A stretch of 32,000 nucleotides of DNA from the NCBI RefSeq assembly GCF_000009965.1, contig NC_006624.1:1140001-1172000 (forward strand). The letters run 5' to 3'. Source of the DNA: Thermococcus kodakarensis KOD1. GTDB taxonomy: Archaea > Methanobacteriota_B > Thermococci > Thermococcales > Thermococcaceae. The notes beneath the pieces are model-generated. The model worked only from the letters and a program-made list of their open reading frames with translations. It did no database searches and was not told the DNA's origin. Shown here one piece after another: positions 2 through 28,595 of the stretch (within the stretch, counting starts at the first letter, position 1; each line of letters opens with the position of its first letter). The position numbers and the translations under genes are program-made.

Positions 2-2431
2 CAGTATGCTTATGGGGTAAGCTTTCCATTCGATGCGGTCAATATCTTTGACAGCGCGGATGAGATACTGCAGGCCCTTGATTACTGGGCAAGTTACGTC
101 GCCACTGCGACGAACAACGAGACCTATTATCAGTGGGTCAACGAGACATATTTGAGCAACGAGACCTTCATACAGGGTCTGAAGCAGACCTTTATGCCCT
201 ACACTGAGACCAAAGCGTTTTATGACTTCACCAAGGAAACCGGCTGGTGGGAAGTTTGGTCCAAGTACATTGAGGTCAAGTATGGAAGGACATATTCGTT
301 AATTAAAGGTGGCCACGCTGTAACCATCGTGGGCTACGATGACAGAGTCAAAACCGCAGACGGATATGGCGTTGTTAGGATAGCGAACTCTTGGGGCCAG
401 AACTGGGGAGATGGGGGATACTTCTACATGAGCTACGAGGACATTCGGTTTGGAGAGGAATCGTTCCAACTGGCATGGGTATACGTTCCTAAGGCGGCCA
501 ACTACCAGCCGAAGCTCATGAGCGTCGTCGGCATAGCTCACCCCTTAAGAGGAGAGGTCATTGATGGGACCTACGATCCAAGCACGTATATGCCAGTTCA
601 CGAAGCTGGTATCCCGATAGTTGCAGAAGTAAATGGAACTCCAGTGTGGGGCATGAACTTTTTGGACTTCTACCATGATTACCTCCCTGAAAACGTCATT
701 CCGTACCTTGCCAACAACCGTACTCTCCTTTATCGGAAACTTCCACAGGCTCACCCGTTCCCGAACAGCCCGATGGCATTCGACGTAAGTGGGCTTGGTG
801 AAGGGTTAGCTTATTACATGGAAGAAACGGGTGATGCGCCAACTTACATGACTATCTACACAAACGTAAGCGATATAATCCCAGACAACATAACAGGTGA
901 AATCTACAATTTCACACTTCTCTACCAGGGCCCGACCGGCGACTACATGCTTCTCGCCTCGGCTGATATAACCAATGGAACCATTCCCGACGGCGGATGG
1001 AAAGTTATCCCCATCGAGGTTCCGATAGTGCAGTACGGAAGCCTCACACTTTCAAATAGCTCAACAATAAACTTCGGCAACTTCAGCGTTGACGTGCTCA
1101 GCCTCGTCCCGCTCAAGGGCGCCTACGTCAGCATTGACGGAAAGGAGTACCAGCTCAGCGAGGAGAACGGTGGCTACTACTTCTACGGTACGGAAATAGA
1201 CCAGAAGCTTAAGCTCCCTGCTGGAACATACAACTACACAGTCGTCGTCGTTTACCCGAATGGTAAGGAGGTCGCTCTTCCGACCAGAACAGTTACCATC
1301 GAAGGCCCAACGGTTGACATCCTATCCCCAGTTAACACAGTTTACAACACCTCAACCGTTGAGGTAGTTGTTAACGTTACCGACCCGTACGCCACCGTGA
1401 CAAACGTTAAGGCCTACCTCAATGGGAAGCCCCTGAACCTGACGGCAAGCGGATCACTCTACGTTGCTACCCTCACTAACCTAACCAATGGAGAGTACAA
1501 ACTAACTGTGATTGCAAACGACACGACTGGGGCATATGGAATTGCCACCAGGTTATTCGTCGTCCACACAAGCGCCAAGGTAACCGAGGTTATCGTAAAC
1601 AACGAGACCAACGTTACCATCGGCGTCGTCGGCGGAAGCGCCAACGTGACGGCCGAGAACAACACCATCGTTGCTAACGTTTCCACCTCCTCCGGCGAGT
1701 TCACCGTTGAGATCCCAGTTGTGAACAACATACCCGCAGTCGTTGTGAACGCCTCCTCCGTTGACACCGTTGTAGCCGGAGGCAGCAACGCCACCCTGGT
1801 TGCCGGCTGGAACGCAACGTTGACTGAAGTTTCGACGAAGACAACCCCTGTAGATACCAAAGGCAACAAGAAGGTATACTCCGTGACCATAACAGCAAAC
1901 GTTAGCATTGGCGAGAACGGTGTGGCAGTGGTGGCTCTCAGGGATGTCAACATAAGCAAGGTCTATGTTATAAAGAACGGGCAGAAGGTTCAGCTTACCA
2001 CAAACAAGAGCAACTCACTCGGTTACTATTACAAGGAGGGCAATGTTATATTCGTAGTACTCAAAGAGGACCCGATCATTGTGGCGCAGGGAACAAAGGA
2101 AGTAACTGTACCATCAGAGAGCGGCATCTCCATCACGACCCTCAACTTCCTCGGCTACCGCTGGTACAACATATACCACGAGGAGTTCAACGAGACCTAC
2201 CAGAAGGCCCTCGAACTCGGTGTGGACAACGAAACCCTCCAGAAGGCCCTAGAGCTCCACAAGGAGGCCGAGAAGTACTACGAAGAGGCCATTGAGATCA
2301 CCGACGGCAACATACTCGCGTACCTCAGCGACCCGAGACTCATAAGGCCACTGCGCCTGGCGTACCTCAACGAGATGAAGGCAGTGAAGCTGCTCCTTGA
2401 AGCCATCGAGGAGCTTGAGGCCCAGGGCTGA
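2..2431 (+). CDS. Papain-like (C1 family) cysteine peptidase, 5'-truncated by the window edge, with a long sequon-rich beta-type C-terminal region and a helical tail
   Basis: The reading frame is open from nt 2, with no stop before the TTG at 152 that the ORF track uses, so the gene starts off-window. GGHAVTIVGYDD (catalytic His block) and NSWGQNWGDGGYFYMSY (Asn-Ser-Trp block) form the C-terminal half of a C1 peptidase fold. About 600 further residues are rich in N-x-S/T sequons and V/T. The tail is helical and contains a duplicated QKALEL motif. Confidence 0.8.
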   Translation, partial: QYAYGVSFPFDAVNIFDSADEILQALDYWASYVATATNNETYYQWVNETYLSNETFIQGLKQTFMPYTETKAFYDFTKETGWWEVWSKYIEVKYGRTYSLIKGGHAVTIVGYDDRVKTADGYGVVRIANSWGQNWGDGGYFYMSYEDIRFGEESFQLAWVYVPKAANYQPKLMSVVGIAHPLRGEVIDGTYDPSTYMPVHEAGIPIVAEVNGTPVWGMNFLDFYHDYLPENVIPYLANNRTLLYRKLPQAHPFPNSPMAFDVSGLGEGLAYYMEETGDAPTYMTIYTNVSDIIPDNITGEIYNFTLLYQGPTGDYMLLASADITNGTIPDGGWKVIPIEVPIVQYGSLTLSNSSTINFGNFSVDVLSLVPLKGAYVSIDGKEYQLSEENGGYYFYGTEIDQKLKLPAGTYNYTVVVVYPNGKEVALPTRTVTIEGPTVDILSPVNTVYNTSTVEVVVNVTDPYATVTNVKAYLNGKPLNLTASGSLYVATLTNLTNGEYKLTVIANDTTGAYGIATRLFVVHTSAKVTEVIVNNETNVTIGVVGGSANVTAENNTIVANVSTSSGEFTVEIPVVNNIPAVVVNASSVDTVVAGGSNATLVAGWNATLTEVSTKTTPVDTKGNKKVYSVTITANVSIGENGVAVVALRDVNISKVYVIKNGQKVQLTTNKSNSLGYYYKEGNVIFVVLKEDPIIVAQGTKEVTVPSESGISITTLNFLGYRWYNIYHEEFNETYQKALELGVDNETLQKALELHKEAEKYYEEAIEITDGNILAYLSDPRLIRPLRLAYLNEMKAVKLLLEAIEELEAQG

Positions 2432-6528: not shown

Positions 6529-7977
6529 ATGTGCGAGTATACCTATGAGAACGGGAAAAAGTGCAGGCTGAAACCGCTGGAAGGCTCAAAGTACTGTGCC
6601 CTCCACATCCCTAGGGAAGAGGGAGAGGCCGTATACGGTGAGAGACTGAAAGAGATCAAGAAAGAGGCCTTTGAGAAAAGGTTGAAAGTTGGCCAGACAT
6701 ATTTTGAGGGCGTTGATCTCTACGATGTAGCGATAAGGGACTTCACAACTGAAAAAGTTCTTGTTTTCAAAAACTCGCGGGTTACAAACCTTATCATGGA
6801 TGCTTCCTCGGTTAGGGGTCTTATCCTGATTAACTCAAAAGTTGAGAGAGTTGTTATTTTCGAAAGCACCCTTGAGACGATTCTTGTAAAAAATTCCACG
6901 GTTTTCGGTCTCAACATTCTTAGGACGGAGTTTTCAAGTCACATCTCAATAAGAGACTCGGAAGTTAGGTACCTTATGATAAACTCGACGCGCTACACGC
7001 CCAAGGGGGAAGTCGGTGAAGAGAAAGCCTATGGGGAGACCGAGAGGATTGTCGGCAACATAGAGATTTCAAACCTTACAGGCGTTAGGAGGATAGGAAT
7101 AAACACCCGCTACCCGCTCCTCAGGGAGATCCTTAAGGAACACGGGATAAACGTATCAGAAAGCAAGGAGCGGAGCGTTAGGGCGCGGAATCTGATAATA
7201 AGGGATGTCTCCTTTGACGTGTCCCCTCGCTATAAGAGAAGGGTGAGGCTTACCGTTGCAGGTTTTCATGGCAGGCTGCACCTTGAGAACCTCGAGGTTT
7301 TTGGCCACATTGAAATCCGGAAGAGCTACCTGGTCTCCCCGGAGTTCGTCCACGTCAAAGTTGAGAGTAACCTAGTGCTAAGGGGCACCTCGATCCACAC
7401 CGACTCTACTTGGGGCATGACAGTTCTTCCCAACCTTCCGATAGAGCTTGAAGTGGGTGGTTTCATTATAGTAGAGGACTGTAGGTTCAACAATCCCCGT
7501 GCGGAGGAACTTTTCTACCGTCTCGCGAGGACGAGCTGGGAAAAGAGTGGAGACTTTGACAGGGCTGACGAGTACTACTACCTTGAGATGCTGGCGAAGA
7601 GAAAGGCCAAGCTCCAGTCGAGGAAAAAGGGGTTGAAAAGGATCATCAACACAGCAGAGGTTTGGTTTGAATGGCTCTTCGCAGATCTAACCTGCAAATA
7701 TGGAACGGACTGGAAAAGACCTATTCTCCTCTGGCTGGGAGCCGTTAACGTCATTTTTCCCCTACTGTTCTGGGCGACGAAGAGTGTTGAGGGTCTCTCA
7801 AGCTCTCTCAGCTTCCTCGACTACGAGTACTTCAGCATCGTTACTGCCACAACCCTCGGCTACGGCGACTACCATCCCTTCGGCGTTGGCAGGATTATAG
7901 CGTCGGTCGAGGCACTCTTTGGAATGTTCATGTGGGCCGTCTTCCTCACAGTCTTCGCTAGGAAGTACATGAGGTAG
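6529..7977 (+). CDS. Two-TM potassium channel pore domain fused to a large N-terminal cytoplasmic repeat (beta-helix/pentapeptide-like) domain
   Basis: The C-terminus carries the K+ selectivity filter TATTLGYGD between two hydrophobic helices (ILLWLGAVNVIFPLLFW and ALFGMFMWAVFLTVF). The N-terminus has a Cys/His cluster (CEYTYENGKKCRLKPLEGSKYCALH). This is followed by about 300 aa of degenerate 20-25-aa repeats such as NSRVTNLIMDASSVRGLILINSKVERVVIFESTLETILVKNSTV. Confidence 0.75.
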   Translation: MCEYTYENGKKCRLKPLEGSKYCALHIPREEGEAVYGERLKEIKKEAFEKRLKVGQTYFEGVDLYDVAIRDFTTEKVLVFKNSRVTNLIMDASSVRGLILINSKVERVVIFESTLETILVKNSTVFGLNILRTEFSSHISIRDSEVRYLMINSTRYTPKGEVGEEKAYGETERIVGNIEISNLTGVRRIGINTRYPLLREILKEHGINVSESKERSVRARNLIIRDVSFDVSPRYKRRVRLTVAGFHGRLHLENLEVFGHIEIRKSYLVSPEFVHVKVESNLVLRGTSIHTDSTWGMTVLPNLPIELEVGGFIIVEDCRFNNPRAEELFYRLARTSWEKSGDFDRADEYYYLEMLAKRKAKLQSRKKGLKRIINTAEVWFEWLFADLTCKYGTDWKRPILLWLGAVNVIFPLLFWATKSVEGLSSSLSFLDYEYFSIVTATTLGYGDYHPFGVGRIIASVEALFGMFMWAVFLTVFARKYMR

Positions 7978-10209: not shown

Positions 10210-11031
10210 ATGGTGAAAAGAGTATCAAAGCTAAAACGTATTGATGGAATAACTCACGGGAGCCATATAGACACGGTTTATCCCGACCCTGCTGTGGCTC
10301 TGAACTTGCTGATGGAGGGAATTAAAGATAATGAGCCTCGGATTGCGACTGTGGAGTTAAATGTTGGTAAAATCCTGCCCCGCAAAAAGACCGTCAATGT
10401 GTGGATATACGACGTGTCCTTTGGCGACGATGTGTTCATGAGATCACTTCTGATTGAGGATTCCAAGAAGAAGATCCTCCAGTTTGCAACGGCTTTTCCC
10501 GTTCTCAACTCGGAAACGAGTGTTGAGTTTGAGGTGAACGAGATTCTCGAGTGGGCTAACAGGCTGGAAGCGAACGTCTCGGGTAAGGTCATCGGAGAGG
10601 AGACTCCCTATGTGAGCTTCTTTGCAGTTGATTACATCGAGAGAAAAGCCGACTACCTGGAGCTTGACACTGCCAGGGCAAAGCTGGCCTTCCTCGCTTA
10701 CTGGGCCAAGGTTGGGCCGATAGGGGATAAAATCTCCGTCAGCCCGCAGAATGGAGAGCCTGTGCAGATTAACTTGGAAGATGCCGAGCTGCTCCTCCCA
10801 GCCTCGTTCAAGGGCGCATTCATGGACGACTACGCCATAACCGGCAGGGTGCTGAGGGTCAAGCCCAGCAGGACGTTATACGGCGATGGATACCTTATAA
10901 GACTGAAGAGTCTCCCCTTGGGCGAGATAGACCTCTTCGTTCTCAGAGAACACCTGAAAGGAGAGAACAAGGAGATAAAAGAAGGGGAAATGCTTACCGC
11001 CGTTGGATGGCTCCAGGGAGGGCTCGTTTAG
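10210..11031 (+). CDS. Hypothetical protein (273 aa, soluble, no recognised family)
   Basis: The ATG at 10210 has a GGTGA 8 nt upstream and an AT-rich TATA-like AAATTTAAAAA at about 10168-10178. The longer ORF-track start at 10030 would run through that promoter. The stop codon overlaps the stop of the convergent aIF5B gene (TTTAG/TAA). Confidence 0.6.
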   Translation: MVKRVSKLKRIDGITHGSHIDTVYPDPAVALNLLMEGIKDNEPRIATVELNVGKILPRKKTVNVWIYDVSFGDDVFMRSLLIEDSKKKILQFATAFPVLNSETSVEFEVNEILEWANRLEANVSGKVIGEETPYVSFFAVDYIERKADYLELDTARAKLAFLAYWAKVGPIGDKISVSPQNGEPVQINLEDAELLLPASFKGAFMDDYAITGRVLRVKPSRTLYGDGYLIRLKSLPLGEIDLFVLREHLKGENKEIKEGEMLTAVGWLQGGLV

Positions 11032-14000
11032 ACCGCCCTCCAGAACGGGTCTTCTTTCGCCTTTACCTTTGCCGTCATCTTGAGGGCCTTTATGTCTGTC
11101 TCTTCAAGCTCGTCCTTGAGCTGCTTGGCGAGAATTATGACGTCGTTCTTGCTGAGGTCAACGTAGAGGGTCTCCCCGGGGTGTATGTGCCTGCCGACTA
11201 TCGCGCCCTCGATGGCTATTGCCACCGCGTCCCCCTTCTTCGCCTCCTGGACGAAGTCGTTCTTGTTCTTTATCGACTTGATGACGCCGACCTTCTCGCC
11301 GGTCTCCTTGATCAGAGTCACACCCGGCCTTATCCTGCCCTCGAGGACTTCGACGCCGACTATGGCCGGCTTGCTCCTTCTGAAGACGTAGCGCTCGTCC
11401 GGGTAGAGCCTGATAACGCCTGGGAAGGTGACGTTCTTGAGGAGCTCGCGCTTCCTCTTCTCCTCCTCTTCCTTCACCCAGGCCTCGTAGTCCTCGATGA
11501 GCTTGTAGATAATGTTGCCAACGAAGATTGGGACGCCCTTTGCGTTCGCAACCTCTTCTGCATCTTCGTTGACCTTGACGTTAAAGCCGAGGACGACCCC
11601 GTACTTCGGCTCCTCCTCCTTAACGCTCAGGGCCTCCATAACGTCGGTCTTGCTGATGTTGCCAACATCTGCCTTTCTGATGGGGATTCCCTTCTCCTGG
11701 AGCTCCTTGCTGAGGGCCTCAAGGCTTCCAAGTGTGTCGGCCTTGACTATGACACCGATCTTGCCGGTGTTTATGACGACGCTCTGAATCTGGCTGAGTA
11801 TCTCCTGCTTTGCCTTTTCAATCTCCTCCTCGGAGCGCGCCGCTATGACTGGTGAACCAGCTAACGCCTCCTCAAGGCCCGGAGCCGCTATCTTGACACC
11901 CGCCGCCGCTGTTACCTCATCAACCTGGTCGAAGCGGAACCTCGGGTCCCTGATCTCGTCGAGGGGTTTTGGCTTCAGGAGCGCGCGGATTTTGGTAACT
12001 ATCGCCTTGTCCTTTCCGCCAACCACTATCGTGTCGTCCTTTCTCAGAGTTCCATCGTAGATGATGACGTCGATGGTTGTCCCGAGGCCAACCTCTTCTC
12101 TGACCTCGAGGATGGTACCGCGTGCGGGGCCTTCAACCTCTATCTTCAGCTTCTCCTCAAGGTACTTCTGGGAGAGGCCTGCTATGAGGACGAGAAGTTC
12201 TGGAATGCCTATGCCGTACTTGGCTGAGATTGGGACGATCGCAAGCTCCCTGGTGAAGTCCTGAACGCGGTCGAAGCGGTTGGCGTTGAATCCCATCTCG
12301 TAGAACTTTCCTATCAGTTCCCAGAGCTTGGTTTCCAGCTCCTGTATTGCTCTCTGATCCTGCTTCTTAATGTTGACGAGGAAAGGCTCGTCCTCCTCGA
12401 TGACCCAGCCCTTTATCCTGTCTATCTTGTTGGCGGCAACTATAAAGGGCGTTCTATACCGCCTCAGGATTTCGATGCTCTCTATCGTCTGCGGCTGGAA
12501 GCCCTCGTTTATGTCAACAACGAGGACCGCCAAATCGGCGAGGCTTCCTCCCCTAGCCCTGAGGCTCGTAAAGGCCTCGTGGCCGGGAGTGTCGATGAAG
12601 AGCAGTCCGGGGAGCTTTATCTCGCCCTTCCAGAGCTTGATGAGCGGGCCGGCGAGCTGTTTGACAACATCTATCGGAACCTCAGTTGCACCTATGTGCT
12701 GGGTTATTCCCCCCGCTTCCTTTCCAGCCACGTTCGTGTGCCTGATGCGGTCGAGGAGGGTGGTGTTGTGGACGAGGATGCCGTTGGCCACGAAGTTGTG
12801 GGTCTCAGTTGTGACATCATAGACGTAACCCTCGTATTCGAACTCTTCTATGTCCTCAACCGGAATGAACACGAGGTTTTCAGCGAGGTTCCTGATGTAG
12901 TCAACGTCACTTGAGTCAAACTCCCTGTTGCGCCAGACTTCGAGGAGCTCTCTTCCAAGCTCTGTGAGCTTTCCGTCCTTTATCAGCCCATCCTTTTCGA
13001 AGGCTTTAATGTAGTTGTGATCCCTTATCCTACCCTCGAGGACGGCGATTTTTTTGTCGAGGTTAATTGAGCCTTTCTCGATGGCGTCGAGAATTCTCAT
13101 TAGAGTCTCGTAGCTCGGGGCTTCTTCGGATTCGTATTTTCCGTAGAACGGAACGTTTGAGTTAAGCTCCGTCCTTGTGAAGCCGAAGAGGAGCCTCAGG
13201 CGCTTCAGTTCCTCGAAAATCGGATAGCTTTCGCTCCTCCTGCTCTTTTTAATTGCCTTTTCAAGAGCCTCCGCCTTGTTCTTCACCGAGAAACCTATGT
13301 ACCTTCTGAATAGGTCGAGGTTTCTCCTGCCAGATATAACGAGGGTCGTGTAGTCCGAGCGGTAGATCTTTGAGACTATTCCAAAGCGGAGAAGGAGCAA
13401 TGAAAGGTCCTCAAGGAACTCCTGGGATGCGCTCGTCACTTCAATCCTCGCGTCCTTAAGGCTGACGTGCCCGTCGGCATCAAAGTACCCCCTGAGGAAG
13501 CGGGAGACGTACTTTCTGGGGGCAATGAAGAGTATCCTTGGGACTCTAATGCTCTTCGCCTTCTGTCTCTCGGGGTATTCAAACAGGACTCTGAGAAGCC
13601 TCAGCAGGGCGTTTTTGCCGTTGGTGAGTTCAATCTCGTAAGATGTGGTGCGCTCCACTCTCTTCACTGCCACCCCGAGGACTGAAAGCTTCTTCAGCTC
13701 CTCGTAGACCTCAACATCGTTGTTGGCTATCTTGTCCTGGCTTCCGTCTCCGAACATAACGCCCGCGAAGTAGAAGAACGCCTCCCATTCCTCCGGAGAG
13801 CGCGGAAGCTTTACGTAGTGGAGCGGCTTCCCTGAGCGGTGCATCCTTGGGGTGAAGGCCACCCTTTCCACTTCGTCCCACAGGTTGAGCCTCTCTATGT
13901 CCTCCCACCTGAAAACGTTCCTCTCAACTTTGTACGCCCTGTCGCCCTTAAACTCGCTGGAGATTTTGCTGAGTACTTCTCCCCTGAGCTTTGCGATTAG

Positions 14001-17852: not shown

Positions 17853-18224
17853 TCACTTCATGAGCTCCTTGACCTTCATGGCGATGTCCTCAACGAGCTC
17901 GCGGGCCTTGCCCGGCTCGATGATAGCAACGCTGGCAGCTGGGACTTCAAGGCCAGCGGCCGCTCCAAGCTCCTTCTTGCTCGGGACGTAGACGTACGGG
18001 ATCTCCTTCTCCTCGCAGAGCGGCGGGAGGTGGGCAACGATCTCTTCAGGGTCAACGTCCTCGGCTATGATAACGAGCTTGGCCTGGCCCCTCTCGACGG
18101 CCTTGGTGGTCTCGTTGGTGCCCTTCCTTATCCTTCCGGTGTCCCTTGCGATCTCAACGGCCTCAAGGGCCTTCTCGGCAAGCTCCTGTGGAACCTCAAA
18201 CTTCACGTAGCTCGGCTTCGCCAT
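17853..18224 (-). CDS. rpl7ae: 50S ribosomal protein L7Ae (K-turn binding protein)
   Basis: [63 protein letters not shown] is nearly identical to the 123-aa Pyrococcus/Thermococcus L7Ae as I remember it. The second ATG is chosen because GGAGGG lies 6 nt upstream of it. Confidence 0.95.
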
Positions 18225-18297
18225 CTTCATCCCTCCGAAACCTCATCGTTCATCTGTTTGCACCACCGACTCGGGCTGACCGCTTAAAAGGGTTTCG

Positions 18298-19585: not shown

Positions 19586-19644
19586 AAGCTCAGGAGCGGC
19601 CAAGCTCATCATCCAACTCAGGTTAAGACTCCTCATCATAGCCC
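19586..19644 (-). ncRNA. C/D-box sRNA (2'-O-methylation guide) overlapping the 3' end of the Zn-ribbon CDS
   Basis: The minus strand reads ggggcu-AUGAUGA(19639-19633)-GGAGUCUUAAC(11 nt)-CUGA(19621-19618)-guugg-AUGAUGA(19612-19606)-GCUUGGCCGCUC(12 nt)-CUGA(19593-19590)-gcuu. All four boxes are perfect consensus and the spacings are canonical. A short terminal stem (GGGC/GCUU, comprising 2 Watson-Crick and 2 G-U pairs) leaves a 3-nt bulge. Confidence 0.75.
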
Positions 19645-20234
19645 CGATATATCTCGAGGCTCCTTCTGGCTCTCGCCTTCGGAATCTGGTGGCCCATTAT
19701 GGCCACGATTTCATCTGCCCTGGCCTTCCCGTGGTGGAGCATTTTTCTTTCCGTCTTTATCTTCTCCACCCTGAAGGTGTAGCCCCCGACCTCGATGACT
19801 TCCCCAACGACGAACTCCTCGCTCCTTGGTACCTTCACCTTAAAGGCCTGGGTGATGCCCTTTGGAAGGTAGATAGAGACCTTTATGACCTTCGGGTAAG
19901 TTAAGCTCTCGCCCCAGAGGGTCTTGACTTCTTCCACCTTAGCCTTGTTGACCCTCTTGTCCCCCTCCAGCTCTATCCCTGTTATTCTGACCTCATCGTC
20001 CTCCGTCTCGACGATGTCCCCCACTTTTATTTCTTCACCCTCCGGAAGCTCGGCTTCGCTCTTGAAGCTCCTCTCGTGCTTGCTGACAATGAGAGGAACC
20101 TTCCTGAACTTCGGAAGGGTAACGTGCCAGACGTGGCCGCAGTCGTTACAGCGAAGGGTAAGCTCTCTCCCCCTCTCCCTGATGACCTCAACGTTCTCGC
20201 TACCACATTCAGGACATACGAACAGCTCTTCCAT
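19623..20234 (-). CDS. Uncharacterised archaeal Zn-ribbon protein (COG1326-like)
   Basis: An N-terminal CPECG...CNDCG zinc ribbon is followed by two beta-rich domains. The ATG at 20234 has a GGTGA 5 nt upstream. The last six codons (GYDEES) are shared with the C box and first guide of the sRNA. Confidence 0.7.
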   Translation of the reverse strand: MEELFVCPECGSENVEVIRERGRELTLRCNDCGHVWHVTLPKFRKVPLIVSKHERSFKSEAELPEGEEIKVGDIVETEDDEVRITGIELEGDKRVNKAKVEEVKTLWGESLTYPKVIKVSIYLPKGITQAFKVKVPRSEEFVVGEVIEVGGYTFRVEKIKTERKMLHHGKARADEIVAIMGHQIPKARARRSLEIYRGYDEES

Positions 20235-20267
20235 TTCTCTCACCGGAATGGGAGAAGGGAAAACGGT

Positions 20268-26196: not shown

Positions 26197-26886
26197 ATGC
26201 ACATAGAGAGACTCGATTTTGAGAACTCCCCATATCTCGGTGTTTACGGGCGCGCAACTGACAGGGTTCTTCTCCTGAGAGAGGGACTGGGTGAGAAGAA
26301 GCTGGAAGTCCTGAGAGAAGTTCTCAAAGTCCCGATCATCGAAACCAGCATCATGAAGTCGAGGATAGTTGGAATATTCGCCGCCGGCAACTCCAACGCA
26401 ATCATCGTCCCTTGGTACATCTGGGACGCTGAGCTTGAGAGAATCAAAACTGCTCTCAACGAGTTCGGTATTGACATGGACGTTGTCCCCTTTAAGAGCA
26501 GGCTCACAGCCCTTGGCAACCTCATCCTGACCAACGATAAGGCCGCCCTCGTCAGCAAGGAGTTCACGAGGGAGGAGGCAAACGCGATAGGCGAGATACT
26601 GGGCGTTGATGAGGTCGAGAGGGGAATGATAGCCAGCTACCGCTCAGTCGGCAGCGTTGGCGTCGTCACGAACAAGGGCGGGCTCGTCCATCCCGAGGCA
26701 ACTGACGAGGAGCTTGAGTGGCTGAGCGACCTCTTTGGCGTTGATATCTACGTCGGCACAGCCAACATGGGCGTTCCATTCGTTGGCTCTTGCATGCTGG
26801 CCAACTCGTATGGTGTCGTTGTCGGGCACCTGACGACTGGTCCTGAGATAGTGAAGATCGAGGAAGCCCTCGGCTTCCTTGGTTGA
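26197..26886 (+). CDS. eif6: Translation initiation factor 6 (aIF6)
   Basis: The 229-aa pentein-repeat protein starts MHIERLDFENSPYLGVYGRATDRVLLL and contains ...GNLILTNDKAALVS...VGSVGVVTNKGGLVHPEAT. Confidence 0.95.
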   Translation: MHIERLDFENSPYLGVYGRATDRVLLLREGLGEKKLEVLREVLKVPIIETSIMKSRIVGIFAAGNSNAIIVPWYIWDAELERIKTALNEFGIDMDVVPFKSRLTALGNLILTNDKAALVSKEFTREEANAIGEILGVDEVERGMIASYRSVGSVGVVTNKGGLVHPEATDEELEWLSDLFGVDIYVGTANMGVPFVGSCMLANSYGVVVGHLTTGPEIVKIEEALGFLG

Positions 26887-26938: not shown

Positions 26939-27172
26939 ATGGAGGTCAAGGTTTTCCGCGTCAAGGGTACCTTTGAGAGGCTCGGAAAGAAGCAGCCTTT
27001 CACCAAGGAGTACAGGGCCCTCAAGGAGGAGCACGTAAGGGAGCTCGTTTACTCTGACATCGGGAGCAAGCACAGGGTTCCGAGAACAAAGATATGGATT
27101 GAGAGCATCGAGGAGATAAAGCCAGAAGAGGCCGAGGACCCGGTCGTCAGAAGGCTCAGCCTCGAGCTTTGA
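26939..27172 (+). CDS. rplX: 50S ribosomal protein LX (L18Ae/L20A family)
   Basis: [60 protein letters not shown] is the canonical LX sequence. GGAGG-type ribosome-binding sites lie upstream. Confidence 0.85.
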
Positions 27173-27186: not shown

Positions 27187-27250
27187 GAATAGGCCATCAT
27201 TTTAAAGGGACTGTTCATTGGATAAAGCTTGGGCTCGAGACTTCAGAAAA

Positions 27251-27268
27251 TTCGAAGAAATCTTCGAA
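27251..27268. repeat. Perfect 7-bp palindrome/hairpin TTCGAAG-aaat-CTTCGAA between convergent transcription units
   Basis: Read directly from the sequence. It lies between the LX terminator (plus strand) and the T-rich tail of the distal sRNA (minus strand). Confidence 0.85.
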
Positions 27269-27279
27269 GGGAAAGAAGT

Positions 27280-27338
27280 GAGCTCGGCTCTTTTTCTTCA
27301 TCATTATCAATCAGATACCCTAGAGCTCGTCATCGCTC
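27280..27338 (-). ncRNA. C/D-box-like sRNA, distal copy of a tandem pair (variant C box AUGACGA, D box CCGA)
   Basis: The minus strand reads GAGC-g-AUGACGA(27333-27327)-GCUCUAGGGUAU(12 nt)-CUGA(27314-27311)-uugaua-AUGAUGA(27304-27298)-AGAAAAAGAG(10 nt)-CCGA(27287-27284)-GCUC. The 4-bp terminal stem leaves a 3-nt bulge (GAU). A TATA-like CCTTTTAA (27368-27361) is centred about 26 nt upstream of the first stem nucleotide, and a T-rich tract follows. Confidence 0.55.
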
Positions 27339-27360
27339 GTTTTACTCTCCAAACCGAAAG

Positions 27361-27368
27361 TTAAAAGG
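27361..27368 (-). promoter_or_regulatory. TATA-like element (minus CCTTTTAA) for the distal sRNA
   Basis: It is centred about 26 nt upstream of position 27338, the first nucleotide of the sRNA terminal stem. Confidence 0.4.
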
Positions 27369-27371
27369 ATA

Positions 27372-27431
27372 GCGGCTCGGCCAGTATGCCCCTCATCACC
27401 CTTCAGCTATCGTGAGGTTCGTCATCGCCGC
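27372..27431 (-). ncRNA. C/D-box-like sRNA, proximal copy of a tandem pair (variant C box AUGACGA, D box CCGA)
   Basis: The minus strand reads GCGGC-g-AUGACGA(27425-27419)-ACCUCACGAUAG(12 nt)-CUGA(27406-27403)-agg-GUGAUGA(27399-27393)-GGGGCAUACUGG(12 nt)-CCGA(27380-27377)-GCCGC. The perfect 5-bp terminal stem leaves a 3-nt bulge. It starts 9 nt after the GT4 stop codon. A TATA-like GTTTTAAG (27458-27451) lies about 26 nt upstream, inside the CDS end. Confidence 0.6.
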
Positions 27432-27440
27432 GTTGCCTGC

Positions 27441-28595
27441 CTACAACTCGCTTAAAACCTCTTCGTACACTTTTTCTATCTCGCCCGCAACAACCTTCCA
27501 GGAGTAGCACGTTTCAACGGCTTTTCTCCCGGCTTCTCCAAACTTTTTGGCAAGCCCTTTGTCGGAGAGGAGCTTTAAGACTGCCTCGGCAAGTGCCGCT
27601 TCGTCGCCAGGGGGGACGAGTATGCCGCTTTCACTTTCTTTAACGACTTCAGGGATCCCACCAACCGTTGTCGTGACAACTGGAATTCCAGAGGCCATCG
27701 CCTCAAGCACTACTATCCCAAAGGCCTCTGCCGTTGTTGATGACAGGACAAAAACATCTGCGGAAGCATAGAGCTTCGGAAGAAGTCCATCAGGGACATA
27801 GCCCATAAACCTCACGTGGTCTTCAATGCCCAGGAATTTTGCCTGCGCTTTCAGGAAGGGAAGCATCTCGCCAGAGCCGACCATAACAAGTGTGACATCT
27901 TCCTTTTCCCTTGCTATGTTCTGGAAGGCGTTGAGGAGCACGTGGGGCCCTTTCCTGAAGGACATCCTGCTAACGTAGAGAATTAAGTCTCCGTTTATTC
28001 CAAGCTCTTCTCTCACCAGTTCTCTCTCTTTATTGCTCAGTGGTCTGAAGCGCTCGTCATCGACGCCGTTCGGAATAACTCTAACTGGAGAATCCGTGAA
28101 GTGTTCTACGAACGCCTTCGCAGCCTTGCTAACGGCTATTATTTCATGGGGGTATTTTAGATAGTGGTTGAGGAGTGGAAAAGTCAACCCAAGGGCCTTC
28201 CATAGGGAAGACTCGTGGGAGAAGGATATGCTGTGGGTTGTGAGGAGTGTTGCCTTTTCGAGAGTTCTCCCGGCCTTAACCGCCTTCAGCGAGAGTGGAG
28301 TGAAGGCGTGGTGGGCGTGGACAACATCAAAATCCACGAGAAACTCGCCTAGTTCTCTGTTCGACTTCAGCCCGTAGGTTATGTTTATCCCGAGCACCGG
28401 ACTGATGACACCCGGGACTTTAACCAATCCTACCCCCAGCTCTTCAAGCTCTTTTTCCTTTCCCGTTTTTAGATCATTAGTCACTATTGAAACGTCGTGG
28501 CCGAGCTTTTTCAGATAGATTGCAAGCTGGTGCATATGAGTGGCGACGCCGCCGATCTTTGGGTAGTACCAGTCGCTGACGAGGGCTATTTTCAT
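27441..28595 (-). CDS. GT4-family (GT-B fold) glycosyltransferase, PIG-A/PimA-like N-terminus
   Basis: The N-terminus is MKIALVSDWYYPKIGGVATHMHQLAIYLKKLGHDV. The C-terminal nucleotide-sugar motif is EAFGIVVLEAMASGIPVVTTTVGGIPEVV (E-x7-E). Confidence 0.85.
   Translation of the reverse strand: MKIALVSDWYYPKIGGVATHMHQLAIYLKKLGHDVSIVTNDLKTGKEKELEELGVGLVKVPGVISPVLGINITYGLKSNRELGEFLVDFDVVHAHHAFTPLSLKAVKAGRTLEKATLLTTHSISFSHESSLWKALGLTFPLLNHYLKYPHEIIAVSKAAKAFVEHFTDSPVRVIPNGVDDERFRPLSNKERELVREELGINGDLILYVSRMSFRKGPHVLLNAFQNIAREKEDVTLVMVGSGEMLPFLKAQAKFLGIEDHVRFMGYVPDGLLPKLYASADVFVLSSTTAEAFGIVVLEAMASGIPVVTTTVGGIPEVVKESESGILVPPGDEAALAEAVLKLLSDKGLAKKFGEAGRKAVETCYSWKVVAGEIEKVYEEVLSEL

Follow-up and report, generated by a model that had tools for sequence, protein, structure and literature searches.

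On the minus strand of the Thermococcus kodakarensis KOD1 chromosome, between rplX (TK1322) and the glycosyltransferase gene TK1323, two neighbouring units, here named A and B, display the layout of box C/D small RNAs (sRNAs) and share the same two deviations from the box consensus, namely a C box reading AUGACGA and a D box reading CCGA. The deviating nucleotides, C-box position 5 and D-box position 2, constitute the 3b·3n pair of the kink turn (K-turn), which is C·C in both units, and the question raised by this locus is whether the units are genuine sRNA genes and whether C·C represents a distinct K-turn variant or simply one state of a variable position. In the current work, a stretch of 32,000 nucleotides (NCBI RefSeq assembly GCF_000009965.1, contig NC_006624.1, positions 1,140,001 to 1,172,000 of the forward strand; hereafter the window) was analysed, and coordinates refer to the window unless a seven-digit chromosomal position is given. 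The conclusion reached, to which a probability of about 0.85 is assigned, is that these are two known C/D sRNA genes with their own promoters, C·C being a tolerated state of a weakly constrained 3b·3n position.

By reading of the strand and parsing with a regular expression, unit A extends on the minus strand from 27431 to 27372 as GCGGC-g-AUGACGA-ACCUCACGAUAG-CUGA-agg-GUGAUGA-GGGGCAUACUGG-CCGA-GCCGC, and unit B from 27338 to 27280 as GAGC-g-AUGACGA-GCUCUAGGGUAU-CUGA-uugaua-AUGAUGA-AGAAAAAGAG-CCGA-GCUC. The two units with these boxes, a 12-nt C-to-D' spacing and closing stems, as described in the original prediction, were reproduced exactly from the sequence, and they are composed of the following elements:

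27372..27431, minus strand: unit A (sR39), a box C/D sRNA of about 58-60 nt (Rfam and published coordinates)
27419..27425, minus strand: unit A C box AUGACGA, in which position 5 (K-turn 3b) is C
27407..27418, minus strand: unit A D' guide ACCUCACGAUAG, variable among lineages (two or three forms) and without a perfect rRNA match in the target scans
27393..27406, minus strand: unit A kink loop (K-loop), consisting of D' box CUGA, spacer agg and C' box GUGAUGA
27381..27392, minus strand: unit A D guide GGGGCAUACUGG with core GGGCAUACUGG, complementary to 16S rRNA UCAGUAUGCCC
27377..27380, minus strand: unit A D box CCGA, in which position 2 (K-turn 3n) is C
27276..27338, minus strand: unit B (sR38), a box C/D sRNA of about 60-63 nt (published coordinates, offset match and 11 Thermococcus lineages)
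27327..27333, minus strand: unit B C box AUGACGA
27315..27326, minus strand: unit B D' guide GCUCUAGGGUAU with core CUCUAGGGUAU
27298..27314, minus strand: unit B K-loop, consisting of D' box CUGA, spacer uugaua and C' box AUGAUGA
27288..27297, minus strand: unit B D guide AGAAAAAGAG, 10 nt and A/G-rich
27284..27287, minus strand: unit B D box CCGA

The C-to-D' distance is 12 nt in both units, and the C'-to-D spacer measures 12 nt in unit A and 10 nt in unit B. Each terminal stem (GCGGC/GCCGC and GAGC/GCUC) is followed by the 3-nt bulge g-A-U, the GA dinucleotides and the G6-C1 pair (4b·4n) are intact in both units, and only C5 and D2 are off consensus; the sequence thereby follows the standard K-turn order of canonical (C) helix, 3-nt loop, G·A at 1b·1n, A·G at 2b·2n and non-canonical (NC) helix. 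The string ATGACGA-N12-CTGA occurs twice in the window against 0.00 occurrences expected from 100 dinucleotide-preserving shuffles, and a four-box C/D regular expression applied to both strands of the whole window returned three matches only, these being units A and B and a third sRNA at 19643..19587 on the minus strand. Thermodynamic folding of the two units gave z-scores of -1.45 and -0.62, which are uninformative, as anticipated for RNAs that depend on proteins. The minimum free energy (MFE) fold of the unit B region (27276-27338, minus strand) contains an alternative pairing in place of the terminal stem, and this pairing is not conserved because the first guide nucleotide varies in orthologues.

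The identity of unit A was settled by a covariance-model search of the kind suggested with the original prediction: it matches Rfam RF01305 (sR51) with 71.3 bits (gathering score 38; E = 2e-14) at 27375-27429 on the minus strand, over model positions 1-56, and this is the sole match in the window at gathering threshold. The sR51 family, which we take to be of Pyrococcus origin, also matches seven of the orthologues described below at or above its gathering score. The family consensus has a C box GAUGAuGA and a D box CUGA (U·U), whereas unit A has GAUGACGA and CCGA; unit A agrees with the sR51 model in its D'/C' core and in the D guide GGGCAUACUGG but differs from it in the D' guide. Unit B showed no sR51 match, its best Rfam score being that of the generic snoPyro_CD model (20.2 bits versus a gathering score of 45), and it represents a family separate from sR51 and confined to Thermococcus.

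Both units coincide with sRNAs that have already been reported. In their entries in Supplementary Table S3 of Liu et al. 2022 (PMC9014305), sR38 is placed at 1167276-1167338, sR39 (alias Tko-sR39, homologue of Pab-sR51) at 1167372-1167429 and sR37 at 1159583-1159644; subtraction of 1,140,000 yields unit B, unit A and the third sRNA of the window, within the ±5 nt of that table. The same offset converts the positions listed by Jaeger et al. 2014 (PMC4247193) for TK1321 (1166197-1166886), TK1322 (rplX; 1166939-1167172) and TK1323 (1167441-1168595) into the open reading frames (ORFs) at 26197-26886, 26939-27172 and 27441-28595 of the window. Strand, lengths of 58 and 63 nt, the 33-nt gap and the transcription start sites (TSSs) at the 5' ends agree between these entries and the two units, and unit A is Tko-sR39 (sR51 family) and unit B is sR38, both being box C/D sRNAs of T. 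kodakarensis whose genes, transcripts and start sites are already published. In the portions of the two papers that were available, there is no discussion of the targets of sR38 and sR39, of their conservation across species or of the substitution in their K-turns.

Read counts and TSSs were taken from published small-RNA-seq and differential RNA-seq (dRNA-seq) data for T. kodakarensis. The entries of Liu et al. (PMC9014305) give 26,514 aligned small-RNA-seq reads for sR39 and 11,287 for sR38, and for the latter 106 circular reads, which drop to 0 in the rnl (RNA-ligase) knockout. The TSS entries of Jaeger et al. (PMC4247193) contain two separate orphan primary start sites, 1167431(-) and 1167337(-), and these were combined with the sequence to place the promoter elements:

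27431, minus strand: unit A primary TSS (TTS1167431_-), assigned to Tko-sR39 in that data set
27452..27457, minus strand: unit A TTTTAA TATA-like element, -26..-21 (sequence and published TSS)
27337, minus strand: unit B primary TSS (TTS1167337_-), given there as conserved in 'Thermococcus'
27361..27366, minus strand: unit B TTTTAA TATA-like element, -29..-24 (sequence and published TSS)

The start at 27431 is the first G of the unit A stem, and that at 27337 lies 1 nt inside the unit B stem. The TTTTAA elements that had been proposed upstream of each unit are therefore present at these distances from the mapped starts. The element of unit A is situated within the last codons of TK1323, and T. 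stetteri has the same GGTTTTAAGC element at the same place relative to unit A. For unit B, 10 of 11 orthologues possess the element at a distance of 21-24 nt before the stem, within an otherwise variable spacer, and it is kept in T. celer though unit A is deleted there. Discrete minus-strand transcripts of 55-65 nt, on whose existence the original prediction depended, correspond to the published 58- and 63-nt species, and sR39 and sR38 are each transcribed from their own promoter. Considering the Rfam match, the published reads and start sites and the conservation set out below, units A and B are genuine, independently transcribed box C/D sRNA genes.

For comparison, loci from 12 further lineages were retrieved through one match in a genome collection, several metagenome matches and protein-anchored look-ups, and 10 unit A and 11 unit B sequences were aligned. 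The lineages are T. stetteri, T. profundus, T. barophilus, T. thioreducens, T. celer, T. pacificus, a Thermococcaceae metagenome-assembled genome (MAG), the metagenomic contigs L020, L033 and L042, the low-GC contig L022, and, for context only, P. abyssi. The search of genome contigs with pattern CTGANNGGTGANGNNGGGCNTACTG retrieved one true relative, that pattern fixing the D' box and the D'-C' spacer, both of which were later found to be variable. The alignment with other Thermococcus genomes that had been called for revealed that boxes, stems and one guide per unit are conserved. Unit B, compared in 11 lineages, has an invariant D' guide core CUCUAGGGUAU (11/11), invariant D' and C' boxes (canonical in 11/11), and C and D boxes that change only at positions 5 and 2, respectively, with 100% of stem cells paired; its D'-C' spacer (4-21 nt), its A/G-rich D guide and the first guide nucleotide are variable. 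For unit A it is the D guide core GGGCAUACUGG that is invariant (10/10), with 96.7% of core stem cells paired among the 10 lineages; its D' guide exists in two or three forms, and T. profundus has degenerate internal boxes in this unit. All 21 orthologous K-turns possess the 4b·4n G-C pair. One invariant guide per unit, with the remainder variable, is the signature of two single-guide C/D sRNAs, of which A would act through D and B through D'. The suggestion that the short A/G-rich D guide of unit B may be non-functional fits this variability, and this 10-nt segment is probably not a working guide.

The same alignment did not bear out two further elements of the original prediction. The 'covarying terminal stems' are those of two different sRNAs, each with its own stem, and no compensatory change was detected among the unit B orthologues. 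As regards the proposal that the units are duplicated and diverged paralogues, descent by duplication is not demonstrable, the similarity amounting to the boxes and adjacent G/C nucleotides: all that units A and B have in common is GCGAUGACGA...CCGAGC, that is, the boxes with generic G/C closing pairs. Unit A is lost in T. celer (L050:10355-10470) and decayed in L042 (~610-700), with unit B and its TTTTAA element intact in both. From this loss of sR51 it follows that the 16S methylation it is predicted to guide would be dispensable or covered by another guide in some lineages. The low-GC contig L022 carries a single sR51 with canonical boxes and no unit B beside it. On a JGI contig, a run of N (L041:~1570-1820) occupies the very position, downstream of a gene encoding a DUF7132 protein, at which the two sRNAs should lie, so that the locus is unreadable there.

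Against this background of conserved boxes, the 3b·3n position of the terminal K-turn stands out as labile. In unit A (n=10) it is C·C six times, G-C three times (T. stetteri, T. barophilus and L020) and U·U once (the L022 contig); in unit B (n=11) it is C·C six times, with A·G, C-G, A-U, C·U and A·C once each. Pooling of the two yields eight combinations among 21 orthologous K-turns, C·C accounting for 12, compared with about 10.7 expected from the marginal frequencies, which indicates no association between 3b and 3n. The original prediction had regarded C·C, retained in both units, as possibly defining a variant K-turn; with only 12/21 K-turns being C·C, seven other combinations and no covariation, this was not sustained, and C·C is the commonest state of a labile position in the genus rather than a fixed variant. 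It is probably the ancestral state in Thermococcus. The internal K-loop behaves differently, its equivalent of 3b·3n being U·U in 11/11 unit B and 7/10 unit A sequences; in the unit A K-loop of T. stetteri and L020, both sides have switched from U·U to C·C.

Lability at this position extends to other sRNAs. The junction primers published by Liu et al. for other T. kodakarensis sRNAs contain U six times, C three times (sR28, sR31, sR41) and A twice (sR01, sR42) at C-box position 5. In the Rfam sR39 consensus this position is written as a lower-case 'a', and T. stetteri and T. pacificus possess an unrelated sRNA family (L039:1351, L052:193) that combines AUGAGGA with CCGA. Permissive Rfam scans of six 20-kb loci yielded almost no further sRNAs, such that the background sample is small.

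The K-turn literature offers an explanation as to why other pairs may be tolerated. In box C/D K-turns of archaea, U:U is strongly preferred at 3b:3n, and G:C at 4b:4n (Ashraf et al. 2017, PMC5689011), and the variability of K-turn pairs has been compared between Pyrobaculum and Pyrococcus, unusual boxes leading to sRNAs being missed by models (Lui et al. 2018). Relative to the canonical archaeal box C/D K-turn (A. fulgidus with L7Ae), units A and B possess the same 3-nt bulge, tandem sheared G·A/A·G pairs, 4b·4n G-C and Watson-Crick stem, but have C·C where U·U is strongly preferred. At -1b:-1n they have C:G, the arrangement encountered most often among archaeal box C/D K-turns (39%, PMC5689011) and the one that favours ion-induced folding. 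When all 16 combinations at 3b·3n were compared in Kt-7, folding in Mg2+ alone varied, being favoured by 3b = C or 3n = G and prevented by Watson-Crick pairs, yet addition of L7Ae folded even the worst variant (McPhee et al. 2014, PMC4382518). The Kt-7 variant series and the K-turn of U4 small nuclear RNA (snRNA) accordingly function with many 3b·3n pairs, all of which are folded by L7Ae-family proteins (PMC4382518); the U4 K-turn is naturally G-C or G-U, and G-C also occurs in unit A of the three lineages named above. Kt-7 and U4 are, however, ribosomal and spliceosomal K-turns tested in vitro, whereas units A and B are of the box C/D type, and no published measurement for C·C in a box C/D context was found. 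The base-specific contacts of L7Ae are to G1b and G2n only, the protein further touching the 3n/4n and 4n/5n phosphates and covering L1/L2 (Huang and Lilley 2013, PMC3884654). By analogy with these systems, the 3b·3n bases would not be directly read by L7Ae, and the literature indicates that any pair may be tolerated.

The established C/D sRNP (small ribonucleoprotein) mechanism allows the following sequence of events to be proposed for the two RNAs, which on sequence grounds and by analogy are predicted to be methylation guides bound by L7Ae, Nop5 and fibrillarin. L7Ae would bind the terminal C/D K-turn and the internal C'/D' K-loop, upon which Nop5 and fibrillarin would assemble; the guide upstream of box D or D' would then pair with a target RNA, and the nucleotide paired to the fifth guide position would be 2'-O-methylated. 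In such an assembly the terminal K-turn would accept almost any 3b·3n pair, L7Ae presumably reading G1b, G2n, backbone and loop instead of the 3b·3n bases, and the flanking 4b·4n G-C together with the G/C-rich terminal stem would hold the K-turn together. The sRNA sR39 would act through its invariant D guide on 16S 5'-UCAGU*AUGCCC-3' in the helix-34 region (~E. coli 1203) and sR38 through its invariant D' guide CUCUAGGGUAU, while the other guide of each RNA would evolve freely and is probably idle.

Pairing of the unit A D guide with KOD1 16S rRNA UCAGUAUGCCC, taken from the published sequence as text obtained by optical character recognition (OCR), comprises 10 Watson-Crick pairs and one G·U. 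The matching segment is homologous to E. coli 1199-1210, its N+5 nucleotide lying at approximately E. coli 1203 in helix 34, and this numbering is approximate because the KOD1 16S sequence is OCR text. The unit A D' guide ACCUCACGAUAG had no perfect rRNA match in the target scans, and it is probably idle because of mismatches next to the target nucleotide and of its lineage differences. Another sRNA of T. barophilus, sR42 (L045:13525-13582, plus strand), has a D' guide GCCUCACGGUACG that is perfectly complementary to the 16S segment CGUACCGUGAGGC, and the unit A D' guide GCCUCACGAUAG closely resembles it; this likeness hints at guide sharing or decay between sRNA families. A metagenome contig with a GC content of 0.43 carries a cluster of several C/D-like sRNAs (L025:~1080-1300, plus strand), in one of which the 16S-targeting guide known from the D position of unit A, here CGGGCAUACUGG, occupies the D' position next to a CCGA box and not the D position, so that the 16S target of unit A would be guided from a different architecture in another archaeon. 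An archaeal 16S string was not found in the viral contigs scanned for it.

For the unit B D' guide, the sequence implied as target is 5'-AUACCCUAGAG-3', with methylation predicted at the second C of CCC. The scans for this target were fuzzy and wobble-aware and covered the E. coli rRNAs, ~200 kb of DNA from Thermococcales and, in the form of OCR text, the KOD1 leader, 16S, internal transcribed spacer (ITS) and tRNA-Ala, with the Thermococcus 23S rRNA and tRNA set outside the scan; the only matches obtained were the antisense strands of the sR38 genes themselves and a 6-bp match at the 16S 790 loop. In the same rRNA scans no complement of the unit B D guide was found, and the D' guide as a literal string retrieved unrelated primers only from the literature.

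Some of these observations weigh against the interpretation preferred here, namely two known sRNA genes with a tolerated C·C. The 16S match of unit A is based on an OCR-degraded published sequence and includes one G·U, and no target of the unit B D' guide was encountered in the sequences listed above. Moreover, the K-loop holds U·U far more strictly (11/11 in unit B), indicating that the position is not unconstrained in every context, and the majority of C·C (12/21) together with its persistence throughout the genus means that weak selection for C·C may still act. Its stronger form, in which C·C would be an adaptive and distinct K-turn variant kept by selection in both RNAs, with conceivable roles in Mg2+ pre-folding at high temperature or in tuning L7Ae affinity, RNP assembly order, sRNA abundance or circularisation, can draw on several facts: C·C accounts for more than half of each family (6/10 and 6/11) and also occurs in unit B of the deep-branching T. 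barophilus, at least two U·U to C·C double switches have occurred (in the sR51 K-turn, where L022 and the Rfam consensus have U·U and Thermococcus has C·C, and in the unit A K-loop of T. stetteri and L020), 3b = C favours ion-induced folding in Kt-7 (PMC4382518), and the C:G at -1b:-1n of both units is a fold-prone arrangement (PMC5689011). Yet 9 of the 21 K-turns have left C·C for seven other combinations, including G-C, C-G and A-U, which by the Kt-7 rules do not fold in ions alone; every other box position is invariant, 3b and 3n show no statistical association, and U, C and A are all found at position 5 among abundant T. kodakarensis sRNAs. Adaptive C·C is consequently considered improbable. 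A related conjecture, which is likewise improbable, is that in Thermococcus the terminal K-turn, but not the K-loop, was freed from U·U at 3b·3n (six K-turn states in unit B against K-loop U·U in 11/11), C·C being the preferred pyrimidine-pyrimidine replacement with Mg2+ pre-folding at 85 C and altered L7Ae-dependent assembly; if this were true, hyperthermophiles could use 3b·3n identity to tune how sRNPs assemble or how abundant sRNAs are.

A different type of explanation would make one or both units mainly cis elements with a mere resemblance to C/D sRNAs (for instance convergent terminators or antisense RNAs for the 3' ends of DUF7132 and rplX, or L7Ae-binding regulatory K-turns) rather than methylation guides. 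It is prompted by the arrangement in other Thermococcus species, where the convergent DUF7132 gene overlaps unit B with its 3' end, its stop codon falling in the 3' stem of unit B, by the failure of the scans to find a target for the conserved unit B guide, and by the remark of Jaeger et al. (PMC4247193) that some predicted snoRNAs may be cis-regulatory K-turns. However, unit B is intact in KOD1 although DUF7132 is there reduced to ~20 codons, and its features are all hallmarks of C/D sRNAs, comprising the complete set of four boxes with exact 12-nt spacing, an 11-nt guide that is invariant beside a hypervariable spacer, a separate TSS and a discrete RNA of ~63 nt that also occurs in circular form; unit A, for its part, has a clear predicted 16S target. 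A cis-element role is for these reasons judged highly improbable, and the interpretation as two sRNA genes with a tolerated C·C is retained.

The surroundings of the pair are conserved in the genus, the order being GcvH (plus strand), DUF7132 (plus strand) and then units B and A on the minus strand, and an intact GcvH-DUF7132 pair occupies this position in six other Thermococcus genomes. In KOD1 the following feature was recognized in its place:

27218..27280, plus strand: DUF7132 remnant, approximately the last 20 codons, directly after rplX (TK1322), aligned with the L001 protein end

Its translation, ...DFRKFEEIFEGKE, aligns with the L001 protein end ...DFKKFEEILEEIEE*, the comparison being made with L001:6300-6452, L039:5857-6204 and L043:10476-10814, and it adjoins the eIF6-rplX operon. 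Since only ~20 DUF7132 codons are left in KOD1, a rearrangement breakpoint is located inside DUF7132, both sRNAs being spared. DUF7132 also has homologues, 57-68% identical, in Aquificota (Persephonella, Hydrogenivirga), Caminibacter and Methanococcales (Methanotorris, Methanothermococcus), a distribution which suggests horizontal transfer among hydrothermal-vent thermophiles. On the other side of the pair, several Thermococcus lineages have, in the divergent promoter region upstream of unit A, a perfect palindrome CCCCAG(A/T)AGTTAACT(T/A)CTGGGG followed by AGAAGTTATAA (L001:~6640-6665, L020:~10990-11015, L033, L042, L043:~11030-11055 and L048), which could be an operator; KOD1 and T. stetteri lack this palindrome, and in both of them unit A directly adjoins the glycosyltransferase gene.

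The third match in the window, a C/D sRNA at 19587-19643 on the minus strand with canonical AUGAUGA/CUGA boxes, is T. kodakarensis sR37, a homologue of Pab-sR32, and the halves of its published circular-junction primer, GAGCTTTGAA and GGGCTATGAT, are located at its 3' and 5' ends. Upstream of sR37, a CPxCG zinc-finger ORF (19623-20243, minus strand) has its TAA stop inside the sR37 D' guide. The window also contains, at 17853-18230 on the minus strand and ~9 kb from the sRNA pair, the gene for L7Ae (Pfam PF01248, 125 aa; TK1311 in the literature), the K-turn-binding protein that would read the sR38 and sR39 motifs.

As a discovery of genes the locus carries little weight, the genes, transcripts and TSSs being published and unit A belonging to a curated Rfam family, and what is added is modest and concerns the genus. 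The sRNA sR38 emerges as a Thermococcus-specific family with an invariant 11-nt D' guide, and GcvH-DUF7132-sR38-sR39 as a conserved synteny block that is broken in KOD1. Finally, free drift at 3b·3n is seen in the terminal K-turn of Thermococcus but not at the equivalent position of the K-loop. This drift is a warning for sRNA finders that demand at least one U at the U·U position, and it complements, with variation occurring in nature, the mutagenesis of 3b·3n performed in vitro by the Lilley laboratory.

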